Notes under the pieces: model-generated | Seen by the model: the letters and a program-made list of their open reading frames with translations, nothing else | The model's database searches: none | Told to the model about the DNA's origin: nothing | Made by a program: the position numbers and the translations under genes | Shown: positions 35,321-59,084 of the stretch, piece after piece | Layout of the letters: each line of letters opens with the position of its first letter | Position numbering within the stretch: position 1 is the first letter of the stretch | Source of the DNA: Myxococcota bacterium | GTDB lineage: Bacteria; Myxococcota_A; UBA9160; SZUA-336 | NCBI GenBank assembly: GCA_046754285.1 | Contig: JBHHVJ010000010.1 | Span: 15,317-79,316 of the forward strand | Length of the DNA: 64,000 nucleotides | Direction: 5' to 3'

Positions 35321-35333
35321 GGCAGGATCTGCC
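35321..35333. promoter_or_regulatory. Putative enhancer (UAS) palindrome GGCAG-GAT-CTGCC
   Basis: Perfect 5-bp inverted repeat centred 85 bp upstream of the -24 G at 35412; same structure found upstream of flgB. Confidence 0.6.
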
Positions 35334-35409
35334 CCCCGGCAGACGGGACCCGGGTAAGCAGAGACCCCTTGGAGGACAAGGTGGGTCAGGTGAGACGCGG
35401 CAAAGCTCC

Positions 35410-35425
35410 GGGCACACGCATTGCA
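35410..35425 (+). promoter_or_regulatory. Sigma54 -24/-12 promoter
   Basis: GGGCAC-ACGCA-TTGCA; GG-N10-GC spacing. Confidence 0.7.
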
Positions 35426-35438
35426 GCCTCGGGGGGCG

Positions 35439-37694
35439 ATGTTCTTCCCGGGGGAAAAGACAACGGGGCGCAGGAGCTGCCCAGTTCGGAGGGGCTCGAT
35501 CGCACGCCCGTTTGCTGCACACATCGCTGGGCTCCTGCTCGCGACGCTCGGCGCGAGCCCAGCCGCACACGGCGCAGAGCTGATCGACTCCCAGATCTGG
35601 CAGGCGCACTTCGAGGCGTGGGTCGAGCGGGCGTTGGTACGGGACGAGCTGGACGAAGCCGCCCGGCACGCGCCGGAGCTGGACCCCGGCTCGACCCTGC
35701 GCGTGCTCAACGAGCTGGTGAAGGCGCGGCTCGACGGCCATCCAGAAGGCCTCGCGCTCCCGTCGGAGGTCATCGCGAAGATCCGTGCGCCCGGAATATC
35801 TGGACCCGTCCGGCAGGCCGCACTGCACTACGCGCGCGGCGACATCGAGAAGGCCCGGGAGATCCTCGACGCCCCGGAGCTGGAGAGCGATGCGGACGCC
35901 GCCCATCTCCAGGCTCAGATCCACGACGCCCAGACGGAGAACGAGGAGCCCTACTCGCCTTACCACCGACTCGAGGCGATCGCGGACTATCGCTATGCCC
36001 TGAGCCTGTCCGAGGAGTCCGCCCAGGAGGACCGTGCGCGCGTGCGTATCGGCCAGATCCTCGCCGAGCTTCGCTTCTTTCCGGAGGCGAGGGCCACCTT
36101 CCGGCCGCTTCTCGAGCGGGAGCTTCGCGAGCCATACGACCTGGCAGCGCAGGTCTCGTACACCGAGACGACCTACCTGGCCCGCGATCCCCGTCGCACC
36201 CTGGTGTCGCTCGGTGAGCTCGATCTCGAGACGCTCTCGCCCGCGCTGCGCCACTGGGCCATTCGGCGAACGGGCGACAGCTTCTACCGGCTCGGCAACG
36301 CCCGGGCTGCGGTCCGTGCCTACACACGGCTGATCGAGGAGGCGAGCGACCCCGCGCAGATCGATCCGATCACCCGCCTCCGGCTGACCATGGCCCTGCT
36401 CGAGCTGGGCAAGCCCTCCGAGGCGCAGCTCGAGCTCGCGCACGTGCTCGGAGACACGGACGCCCCCGAGGAGCTCACCGCGCTCGCGGGCCTGCTCCTG
36501 GCGCGCGCCCTACGCGAGACGGAGGCCTACGCGAACGCGGCAGACGTGGCGGCCGAGGTCGCACGGTCTCGCGGGCCGTCCTCCGAGAGTGCGCTGGCCT
36601 GGGTCGAGCTCCTGGAGTCGCGGGGGCGGGTGGGCGAGCCCGTGCTGGAGCTTTCCGACGAGGTGGACGATCTGGCCCAGCGGACGGACGAGGCGCCGGC
36701 CTATGACCTCCTCGCGTATCGGCTGCTGCAGCAGCCGGGTATCGCCGAGACGCCGGCGGAGCTGCGGACCCTCCTGGGCCAGCTGCTCCCAAAGCTCGCG
36801 GACGGACCCGTGCGCAGGCTGGCCCGCGATGATCTCACGGCCCGGCTTCAGGCCCATCTTCGCAGCGTCCAGCTCGGTGAGGAGGAGCTCGACCCGCAGG
36901 TGCTGAAGGACGTCGCCGAGTACCTGCACCCAAGTCACGTCGATCAGGACGCTCTGCTTCTCGGCCTGGAGTCCTTCTACCGTAGTGGGGACTGGGAGAG
37001 CTGCATGCGCTGGGGCCGCACCCTCCACCGCAGCGACGTGCGCCCGATTCGCAAGGGTCTCGGCGCCTGGCGGGACCTGCAGTGTCGCCGCGCCAAGCAG
37101 CCCAGCCTCGTGTCCTCGCGAAACCTGATTCTGCTGGCCGACGGCGGGCGAACGGGATCCTTTGCGCTGGCCCTCGCTGCCGTGGCGGCCGAGGAGGCGC
37201 TGCGCGCAGGCGATCCCCAGGAGGCACGAGAGATCTACGACGCGGCGTTGCACTCGGTGGCCGATCCCCGGCTGCTCGGCCCCGTCCTGCTGCGGGCCGC
37301 AGAGCTCGACCTCGCGGAGGGGCGGCTGCGCGTAGGGGCGCGGAAGCTGCTTCGAGGGCTCGCCCTCACCGACGAAGACGATGTGGTCCATGATCCCTTT
37401 CGCAAGGCAGGCCTGGTAGCGCTCGGCCGTGTCACCGCCACGGAGAAGCTACGAAAGGATCGCGAGCTCACGTCCGTTCTGGAGCGAGAGCGAGAGCGAG
37501 CCGAGAGCTGGTGGGCACCGGTCTACGCTTATCTGGGATTCCGAGCCGGGCGTACGGGCGCACCGCATGGCGGCGACGTCTTCTCCCGGGCGGCGCTCGA
37601 GGTGCGTCGCGTCGCCGAGCTTCGCTCCCGTGTCGAGAAGATCGTGGGTCGCGAAGCTCTCGAGACCGCTCGGACGGAGCTGCGCTCAAGATGA
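35439..37694 (+). CDS. Large alpha-helical (TPR-like) exported protein heading the flagellar cluster
   Basis: Signal-peptide-like segment ending ASPAAHG-AE; repeated TPR-like helices (GDSFYRLGNARAAVRAY, GQILAELRFFPEARATF); ATGA overlap with the activator; start approximate. Confidence 0.65.
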   Translation: MFFPGEKTTGRRSCPVRRGSIARPFAAHIAGLLLATLGASPAAHGAELIDSQIWQAHFEAWVERALVRDELDEAARHAPELDPGSTLRVLNELVKARLDGHPEGLALPSEVIAKIRAPGISGPVRQAALHYARGDIEKAREILDAPELESDADAAHLQAQIHDAQTENEEPYSPYHRLEAIADYRYALSLSEESAQEDRARVRIGQILAELRFFPEARATFRPLLERELREPYDLAAQVSYTETTYLARDPRRTLVSLGELDLETLSPALRHWAIRRTGDSFYRLGNARAAVRAYTRLIEEASDPAQIDPITRLRLTMALLELGKPSEAQLELAHVLGDTDAPEELTALAGLLLARALRETEAYANAADVAAEVARSRGPSSESALAWVELLESRGRVGEPVLELSDEVDDLAQRTDEAPAYDLLAYRLLQQPGIAETPAELRTLLGQLLPKLADGPVRRLARDDLTARLQAHLRSVQLGEEELDPQVLKDVAEYLHPSHVDQDALLLGLESFYRSGDWESCMRWGRTLHRSDVRPIRKGLGAWRDLQCRRAKQPSLVSSRNLILLADGGRTGSFALALAAVAAEEALRAGDPQEAREIYDAALHSVADPRLLGPVLLRAAELDLAEGRLRVGARKLLRGLALTDEDDVVHDPFRKAGLVALGRVTATEKLRKDRELTSVLERERERAESWWAPVYAYLGFRAGRTGAPHGGDVFSRAALEVRRVAELRSRVEKIVGREALETARTELRSR

Positions 37695-57916: not shown

Positions 57917-57924
57917 GGGGCCGC

Positions 57925-58770
57925 ATGGGCCAGGATGCCGAAAGCTTTGTCGCGAAGGCCAAGGAGCTGCCCGTCATGCCGCCCGTGGCTGCCGAGGTCA
58001 TGAAGAAGGCCGAGGATCCCGAAACGGATCTCAAGTCGATCTCGACGCTGATATCCCGGGATGCGGCCCTCGCCGTTCGCGTACTCAAGATCGCGAACTC
58101 CTCTTTCTATTCCATGCCGCGCCGGATCGACTCGATCCAGCAAGCCATCGTGCTGCTGGGCTACTCGACGCTCCGCTCGGTGGTGGTGGCCGCGGCGATC
58201 AAGGACGTCTTCAGCCGCTTCGGCCTCGCCGAGCGACTGCTCTGGGAGCATGGGGTCGCGGGGGGCGTGGGCGCTGCCCTGCTGGCTCAGCAGGTCGGAG
58301 GCATCGCCCGGGAAGAGGCCTTCGTGGGAGGTCTGGTTCACGACATCGGAAAGCTCGTCATCTACTCTCAGGCCCAGGCTGACTATCAGAAGGTGCTGAC
58401 TGCGGTCTACAGCGAGGAGAAGGACTCCGTGAGCGCGGAGACCGAGGTTTTCGGCTTCGACCACACCCAGGTCGGCCGTCTGGTGCTCCACAAGTGGCGT
58501 TTGCCCGAGAGCCTGGCCGCCGCCGTGGGGGCCCACCACGATCTGGAGCGGGCGGGCAGCGTCGACGGTGCCCGTCCGCTGGCGGCCGTGCTCATGGTCG
58601 CCGATCGACTTTGCCTGCGGGAGGGCATCGGCCGCCGCAAGTCGGCGCCGGAGCTTGATCCATTCGCCTGTCCCGGTGGGGAGCTCCTCGGACTGACCGG
58701 CTCCGACATCGATGAGCTCGCTGGCCGTTTCGTCGAGACCTACGAGGAGGAGAGGAAGCTCTTCGGATGA
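57925..58770 (+). CDS. Stand-alone HDOD domain protein
   Basis: LP.MP, D.AL...VLK.ANS.FY, AIV.LG, LWEH, GLVHDIGKL, FGFDH..VG.....W.LP..L..AV..HH. Confidence 0.9.
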   Translation: MGQDAESFVAKAKELPVMPPVAAEVMKKAEDPETDLKSISTLISRDAALAVRVLKIANSSFYSMPRRIDSIQQAIVLLGYSTLRSVVVAAAIKDVFSRFGLAERLLWEHGVAGGVGAALLAQQVGGIAREEAFVGGLVHDIGKLVIYSQAQADYQKVLTAVYSEEKDSVSAETEVFGFDHTQVGRLVLHKWRLPESLAAAVGAHHDLERAGSVDGARPLAAVLMVADRLCLREGIGRRKSAPELDPFACPGGELLGLTGSDIDELAGRFVETYEEERKLFG

Positions 58771-59045
58771 ACGAGCTGCGCTTCATCACCGATCGGGTCA
58801 CGCCTGCCGAGGGAATCGTGCAGCGGATCCAGGATCGCCACGGCGGGAGGCCGCGCCAGCGTCCGTTCCCGCCGCTCCCGGGTGAAGAGGAGGCGGAGAA
58901 GCCGTCGGAACCGAACAGCGAGCGGACTCCCGAGCCTACACCGGACGACGGTGAGGAGCACCGGATCGACGTGCACGTACAGGGGTGGCTTCTGCCCACC
59001 CGGCAAGCATTTCCCCCCGCCGACCACGCCTTCGCGCTCCACTAG
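58767..59045 (+). CDS. Small hypothetical protein
   Basis: 92 aa; ATGA overlap with the HDOD stop suggests translational coupling; Pro/Glu-rich linker then RIDVHV. Confidence 0.55.
   Translation: MNELRFITDRVTPAEGIVQRIQDRHGGRPRQRPFPPLPGEEEAEKPSEPNSERTPEPTPDDGEEHRIDVHVQGWLLPTRQAFPPADHAFALH
58984..59014. promoter_or_regulatory. Two imperfect copies of the putative enhancer
   Basis: GGTGG-CTT-CTGCC (58984-58996; reverse complement begins GGCAGAAG as at flgB; centre 81 bp upstream of -24) and GGCAA-GCA-TTTCC (59002-59014). Confidence 0.45.
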
Positions 59046-59068
59046 AGGTCACACGGCGACAGAGGTGC

Positions 59069-59084
59069 TGGCACCTCCCTTGCA
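59069..59084 (+). promoter_or_regulatory. Sigma54 -24/-12 promoter of the flgF operon
   Basis: TGGCAC-CTCCC-TTGCA, consensus match. Confidence 0.85.

Follow-up and report, generated by a model that had tools for sequence, protein, structure and literature searches.

A probable FlbD/ftr-type enhancer system at the sigma-54 promoters of a flagellar gene cluster in an uncultured Myxococcota bacterium

Which protein activates the sigma-54 promoters of a flagellar gene cluster in an uncultured Myxococcota bacterium, and through which DNA element? The question is raised by a stretch of 64,000 nucleotides (the window; G000:C10:15317-79316) from an assembly of 3.47 Mb, 68.4% GC and 124 contigs. Inverted repeats of the form GGCA-N5-TGCC, here called dyads, lie in it upstream of three -24/-12 promoters, and a gene for a sigma-54 activator (37691-39094, plus strand) is encoded between the first promoter and the second. 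Our analysis argues that the dyads are upstream activating sequences of the FlbD type, known as ftr elements, and that this activator is their FlbD-like enhancer-binding protein, a reading to which we assign a probability of about 0.85. Control by FlbD and ftr elements is a known system, met here in a new lineage and with a new wiring.

The three promoters, all on the plus strand, match TGGCAC-N5-TTGCW exactly or near-exactly: P1 (GGGCACacgcaTTGCA, 35410-35425), P2 (TGGCATacggcTTGCT, 39163-39178) and P3 (TGGCACctcccTTGCA, 59069-59084). Distances to them (d) are counted from the centre of the dyad to the first G of the -24 GG. The ftr-type dyad of P1, GGCAGGATCTGCC (35321-35333, d=84), is a perfect GGCAG-N3-CTGCC, and 17 bp past it there is a weak second site of which only the left half is present (GGCAGACGGGACC, 35338-35350, d=67), a tandem arrangement that is also found in the relatives L039, L042 and L043. 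The dyad of P2, GGCAGAAGCTGCC (39076-39088, d=82; in its context CCGGGCAGAAGCTGCCGGG), is perfect as well and is located within the 3′ end of the activator's open reading frame, in a tail that is not conserved. A weak site with only a left half accompanies it (GGCAGATTCGAGC, 39061-39073, d=97), and in relatives GGCAGAyyTCGCC is found 29 bp upstream of the main P2 site. P3 has two imperfect sites. Site A (GGTGGCTTCTGCC, 58984-58996, d=80), in which only the right half is intact, is found at orthologous positions in L046 and L052, while site B (GGCAAGCATTTCC, 59002-59014, d=62) has one mismatch to GGCA-N5-TGCC and a counterpart at d=62 in four of the five relatives examined, with at most one mismatch in three of these. 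Whether defined as GGCAG-N3-CTGCC or by the relaxed core GGCA-N5-TGCC, just two perfect dyads are present in the window. A preliminary description, made from the letters of the window, had listed a GGCAG-N3-CTGCC-type site upstream of each of the three promoters, two of them perfect and the third a half-match plus a near-match, with one site inside the 3′ end of the activator gene, and the sequences and positions agree with it throughout; its distances of 85, 83 and 81 bp were counted to the second G of the -24 element and become 84, 82 and 80 when counted to the first.

How often such sites should occur in GC-rich DNA was estimated from shuffled versions of the window. For the 10-base GGCAG-N3-CTGCC the expectation was 0.20, and 2 of 100 shuffles reached two sites; for the 8-base core it was 1.5, and 44 of 100 shuffles reached two. 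The genome contains ten perfect 10-base sites, roughly as the window shuffles predict, and the core is under-represented in it: base composition predicts about 139 sites, and 51 are present. By count alone the motif is thus no more frequent than chance. The position of the dyads relative to sigma-54 promoters does exceed chance. When the 51 core sites were combined with 237 relaxed sigma-54-like promoters, just two pairings fell within ±300 bp, at +82 and +84, and both belong to the flagellar cluster of the window.

The arrangement is conserved. Full-length orthologues of the activator, with 59-71% identity, are encoded in 12 other genera of its family (genomes labelled Deltaproteobacteria, uncultured Myxococcales, or Proteobacteria SZUA-336 metagenome-assembled genomes), and in every genus the dyad and the activator gene are physically linked. 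P1, P2 and P3 are all kept at orthologous positions in the relatives, dyad included, the P1 promoter itself in 12 genera. At P2 the dyad has at most one mismatch in 12 of 12 genera and is perfect in 11; at P1 the same holds to within one mismatch for 9 of 12 genera, at d=83-85, and at P3 for 5 of 6. The intergenic sequence around the conserved dyads has diverged. Alignment of 34 sites gave the consensus cCGGCA(G/A)rwnyTGCCgg, and the distances of the main sites fall into bands at 59-62, 70-72, 80-85 and 100-101 bp, that is, in steps of about one helical turn. A weaker second site is often found 17-18 or 29 bp from the main dyad.

Two controls bear on the specificity of the pattern. Between -40 and -125 of 38 orthologous promoters we counted 25 perfect sites whose spacer is 5 nt long, while spacers of 2, 3, 4, 6, 7 or 8 nt gave no perfect site; seven of these promoters had been found through the pattern itself, and without them 18 perfect sites were counted in 31 promoters. 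The 32 genomes of the family were then searched with a composite of dyad and promoter (GGCA-N5-TGCC-N50-80-GGCAY-N5-TTGC), the reversed pattern serving as a control. The composite had 36 matches and the reversed pattern had none. Matches were obtained in all 13 genomes that have an orthologue of the activator, and at least 26 of the 36 are flagellar promoters, namely P1-P3 and a fourth one, P4, described below. In genomes where no orthologue was detected the matches were mostly at promoters of pilin genes, amtB or glnA.

The activator (467 aa, P0001) contains the AAA+ domain PF00158 (E=1.1e-65) with its GAFTGA motif, and a Fis-type helix-turn-helix that reads GNRTQAARDLAISLRTLRNKINEY, with the recognition helix ISLRTLRNK. 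It also has a pseudo-receiver domain in which Glu takes the place of the acceptor Asp (ALILEAG); no Response_reg match was obtained from Pfam at E<=0.001, and the FlbD profile aligns to the protein from residue 15. Its best NCBIfam family is FlbD (NF050807, 392.8 bits), the next being AtoC, 59 bits lower (333.9 bits). Among the approximately 15 activators of the genome it is the best FlbD match (the runner-up reached 357 bits), and the helix S-x-R-T-L-R-N-K was found in none of the other 14. Two alphaproteobacterial-type FlbD proteins, which score 710 and 738 bits to NF050807, read GNRTHAA(K/N)ILGISIRTLRNKL with the helix ISIRTLRNK, and the helix-turn-helix is GNRTHAAKILGISIRTLRNKLRQY in these proteins as against GNRTQAARDLAISLRTLRNKINEY in the activator of the window; the best FlbD-like protein of a Desulfovibrionaceae metagenome-assembled genome reads GNRTQAADLLGISVRTLRNKLNEY, with the helix ISVRTLRNK. 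In a tree of the AAA+ domain, from which the helix-turn-helix was excluded, the family grouped with the alphaproteobacterial FlbD-type and the Desulfovibrionaceae FlbD-like proteins in a clade of 15 rows with a support of 90 in the Shimodaira-Hasegawa-like approximate likelihood ratio test (SH-aLRT); the tree came from a quick search on a set without bona fide Caulobacter, FleQ or FlrC sequences. Right after the helix-turn-helix (39020-39060) the orthologues share a tail, (N/H)EYxIxEP(D/E)TLPR(T/L)G, which none of the FlbD-type proteins examined, alphaproteobacterial or Desulfovibrionaceae, possesses. FliX (PF10768) had no match in the genome, which is 89.6% complete, and the positive control in Caulobacter did match. 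The preliminary description had taken the sites for enhancers and their positions for meaningful. The two pairings, the phylogenetic footprints, the spacer and reversed-pattern controls and the recognition helix of the activator all bear this out.

The regulon extends beyond the window. P4, which was found by the composite search and a scan of this genome, is a sigma-54 promoter that is likewise conserved; its dyad lies at d=59-61 (70 in one genus). In this genome it lies on the minus strand of contig C8 (C8:32413), immediately downstream of fliC-fliD-fliS, and its site, TGCAGGATCTGCC, has one mismatch; orthologous P4 promoters with a perfect dyad are present in seven relatives. The operon that it heads (C8:32413 to about 28300, minus strand) begins with a gene for a CgeB-like glycosyltransferase, which matches Glyco_trans_1_2 and DUF3880. 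A gene for a GT9 heptosyltransferase-like protein follows, and two small proteins of the operon have no assignment. Since it adjoins fliC-fliD-fliS, it is likely a flagellin-glycosylation operon. The regulon had been called self-contained, which holds in part only; rpoN (contig C18), P4, two fliA genes and the flagellin genes are on other contigs. A genome scan with the motif had also been proposed as a way to find the flagellin and mot genes, and it found neither. Both flagellin genes, at about 35700 of C8 and about 2230 of C41 (both on the minus strand), have sigma-28-like promoters, TAAA-N16-TCCGAATA and TCAA-N15-GCCGATAC. Sigma-28 control therefore exists in this genome, even though neither fliA nor flgM occupies its usual place in the window. 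Upstream of each of the two fliA paralogues (C3:4431 and C62:8458, both minus strand), about 70 nt from the ATG, there is a sigma-54-like promoter (CGGCACccgatTTGCA and CGGCACcccacTTGCA, respectively). The paralogue on C3 lies directly downstream of an activator gene (C3:6069-4642, minus strand) whose product has the canonical receiver Asp, and opposite another activator gene. At least one more tier of the flagellar hierarchy thus lies outside the window. Apart from P1-P4, the strict scan turned up nothing but near-matches, at pilin, PilY1-like, glnB-glnA, amtB and activator genes, which were judged to be chance occurrences or sites of other activators. The two amtB genes (C14:43056, plus strand, and C31:22928, minus strand) have strong sigma-54 promoters and, at d=60-68, near-dyads that contain GGCAG (GGCAGGAGCTGCT and GGCAGGGGCTGTA). 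NtrC or a different activator probably uses these sites, which would then lie outside the flagellar regulon.

Several observations weigh against assigning the dyads to the FlbD-like activator. The sites of P3 and P4 in this genome are imperfect, with one or two mismatches. The activator's 392.8 bits do not reach the equivalog cut-off of 750 bits for NF050807, and the support for the FlbD clade, an SH-aLRT of 90 in a quick search, is moderate. No convincing dyad was found at the fliA promoters within 500 bp upstream and 400 bp downstream, where a single near-match lies at +119 in C3, and sigma-54-like promoters that lack the dyad imply that at least one other activator feeds the flagellar hierarchy. 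Finally, pure positive autoregulation requires a basal promoter, and none was identified.

Three other explanations were weighed. The dyads might serve another DNA-binding protein, either a repressor or another of the approximately 15 enhancer-binding proteins, while the neighbouring activator recognises something else. The genome does encode many activators, one of them, with a true receiver domain, beside fliA on C3. Yet the FlbD recognition helix is confined to the activator of the window, FlbD-type proteins are documented binders of GGCA-N4/5-TGCC, and the site is linked to this gene in every genus; composite sites, moreover, are present in all 13 genomes that bear an orthologue and elsewhere fall mostly at pilin, amtB and glnA promoters. 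We therefore regard a different reader of the dyads as quite unlikely. It could also be argued that the activator is a master regulator of the FleQ/FlrA type and the dyad a lineage-specific FleQ box, as it heads the cluster, drives early genes (fliF and flhA among them) in the manner of FleQ and FlrA, and has a receiver-like domain that cannot be phosphorylated. This very improbable alternative was rejected because the motif differs and Pfam detects no FleQ N-terminal domain. The cited FleQ/FlrA-like sites are of the GTCA-N6-TGAC type (PMC4641369) and not GGCA-N5-TGCC, an HDOD gene occupies the usual place of FlhG/FleN, and both the best family match and the AAA+ tree point to FlbD.

That the dyads are merely compositional palindromes of a GC-rich genome, or small hairpins with a role at the RNA level or as terminators, would fit their unexceptional genome-wide number and the location of the P2 site at a gene end, where terminators occur. 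The stems, however, are only 4-5 bp long, lack a T-run and coincide with no terminator that we could find. Together with the positional coincidence and the 12-genus conservation, the strict 5-nt spacer and the 36 matches against none for the reversed pattern effectively refute this explanation.

Under the FlbD/ftr assignment, binding, activation, DNA looping and autoregulation are what we infer from the observed sequences, positions, conservation and helix-turn-helix identity. Each helix-turn-helix of an activator dimer would read one GGCA/TGCC half-site across the 5-nt spacer, and bound dimers would assemble the active AAA+ ring. The 60-100 bp of phased DNA between dyad and promoter would then loop, the helical-turn ladder of distances keeping the sites on one face of the helix, and ATP hydrolysis would open the closed complex of sigma-54 RNA polymerase at the -24/-12 promoter. 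In this way almost every structural gene of the cluster would be read from P2 or P3, P3 driving flgF, flgG and the genes downstream of them, and the glycosyltransferase operon of P4 on C8 is probably also a target. As P1 would drive the activator gene together with the gene that precedes it, which encodes a TPR-like protein, the system may be self-activating. Such positive autoregulation through the P1 site had been put forward in the preliminary description; it is plausible, and the architecture of the P1 site and activator operon behind it is conserved, while the regulatory effect itself is deduced from that architecture.

In five to six genera a perfect or one-mismatch GGCA-N5-TGCC dyad also covers the predicted transcription start and the start codon of the operon of the TPR-like protein and the activator. 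It lies at d=-30/-31 in the P1 orthologues of L036, L037, L040, L043 and L045, and all three genera that lack the upstream P1 site have it; in the window its degenerate counterpart (35435-35447) has three mismatches. This start-overlapping dyad could reflect coding constraint (MFCR...). A bolder proposal, which we put forward tentatively and think rather doubtful, is that the FlbD/ftr module acts as a self-activating master switch for virtually the whole flagellar cluster, and not as the mid-hierarchy checkpoint that it is in Caulobacter, with the TPR-like protein, which is apparently exported, replacing FliX as the gating signal, and with the start-site dyad adding negative feedback in some genera.

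The gene map of the window was built from GC content at third codon positions and scans with family models. Divergent from the P1 operon is a DAHP synthase gene (34081-35205, minus strand). The first gene of the P1 operon (35439-37694, plus strand) encodes the TPR-like protein, 751 aa long with an N-terminal hydrophobic segment and only weak TPR matches, and the ATG of the activator overlaps its stop codon (ATGA). The spacing of about 3.7 kb from P1 to P2 is kept in relatives, and a scan of 34900-39300 revealed no sigma-70-like promoter and no terminator in the P1-P2 interval. The ATG of the TPR-like gene is located 13 nt beyond the -12 element of P1; in the window (35421-35441) and in the eight relatives read (L034-L045) an ATG or GTG constantly follows the TTGCA of the -12 element by 12-13 nt. 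A transcription start about 11 nt past this element would leave a leader of about 3 nt, and hence a near-leaderless transcript. P2 reads about 20 kb of tightly packed genes (39218-59045, plus strand), identified by the family scans in the order flgB, flgC, fliE, fliF, fliG, fliH, fliI ... flgE ... fliM ... flhB, flhA, flhF, followed by a gene for an HDOD/HD-domain protein (57832-58770), where flhG (fleN) usually sits, and by a last open reading frame of 92 aa that has no family match. The P3 operon (59096-64000, plus strand) runs to the end of the window and comprises flgF (59096-59797), flgG (59831-60604) and then open reading frames in the positions of flgA, flgH, flgI and flgJ; the family-model scans covered flgF and flgG, and the later genes are named by position only.

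If the assignment is correct, the FlbD/ftr enhancer code (GGCA-N5-TGCC read by ISxRTLRNK) would extend past the Alphaproteobacteria, to at least three distant lineages with a change of spacer only. It would make the regulon of an uncultured flagellated group readable, as four promoters whose distances to their sites differ in steps of one helical turn. It would also offer a natural comparison of how one pair of activator and site can be wired, as a checkpoint midway in the hierarchy or as a switch at its top. The combined signature of dyad and helix could be used to annotate flagellar regulons in metagenome-assembled genomes.

The closest known system is that of Caulobacter, where the sigma-54 activator FlbD works through ftr elements; it activates late flagellar genes, represses fliF, and is controlled by FliX and not by phosphorylation (PMC3930126, PMC3096577). 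The motif of the window is the ftr element of FlbD, as judged from dyad, 5-nt spacer and flanks (CCCGGCA-N5-TGCCGGG in Caulobacter, CCGGGCAGAAGCTGCCGGG here). In both, flagellar genes have -24/-12 promoters with the sites at a distance of about 60-100 bp, and the activator combines a receiver-like domain devoid of the phosphorylation residues with a GAFTGA-bearing AAA+ domain and a Fis-type helix-turn-helix with ISxRTLRNK; the start-overlapping dyad of several relatives recalls the repressive ftr4 at Caulobacter fliF. The two differ in that the activator of the window reaches 393 bits as against the 750-bit FlbD equivalog score, that no FliX was detected, and that the lineage is labelled Deltaproteobacteria or Myxococcales and not Alphaproteobacteria. 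The wiring differs too. Whereas Caulobacter uses a CtrA-dependent class II promoter, the activator here seems to be co-transcribed with the TPR-like gene from its own sigma-54 promoter and dyad; early genes (fliF, fliG, flhA, flhB) would be controlled together with rod and hook genes, and the flagellins are apparently dependent on sigma-28 and not on FlbD.

A second relative is DVU1063, a flagellar sigma-54 response regulator of D. vulgaris with an atypical receiver domain, whose motif, determined by DNA-affinity-purified chip (DAP-chip), has the same half-sites: its site is GGCAxxxxTGCC (Rajeev et al., 2011; PMC3333781), and a passage of the same paper likens it to the Caulobacter FlbD site CCCGGCAxxxxxTGCCGGG. 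The GGCA-N4-TGCC site of a Desulfovibrio flagellar activator with which the preliminary description had compared the motif is this one and is confirmed by that paper; the FlbD site with its 5-nt spacer fits better. The FlbD-like protein of the Desulfovibrionaceae, with its ISVRTLRNK recognition helix, also groups with FlbD in the AAA+ tree. Yet the spacer of DVU1063 is 4 nt and here it is strictly 5 nt (25 sites with N5 and none with N4 in the 38 promoters), many sites of DVU1063, unlike those of the window, are 40-70 bp downstream of a promoter, and its regulon is large, whereas the site is confined here to about four promoters. Pseudomonas FleQ, Vibrio FlrA and D. vulgaris DVU2894, a FleQ/FlrA-like regulator with the predicted box yGTCA-N6-TGACr (PMC4641369), resemble the proposed system in being top-tier, non-phosphorylated sigma-54 activators of early flagellar operons. 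Of their own hallmarks, the GTCA-N6-TGAC motif, a different family of N-terminal domain, a FleN/FlhG partner and control by cyclic di-GMP, none was seen here.

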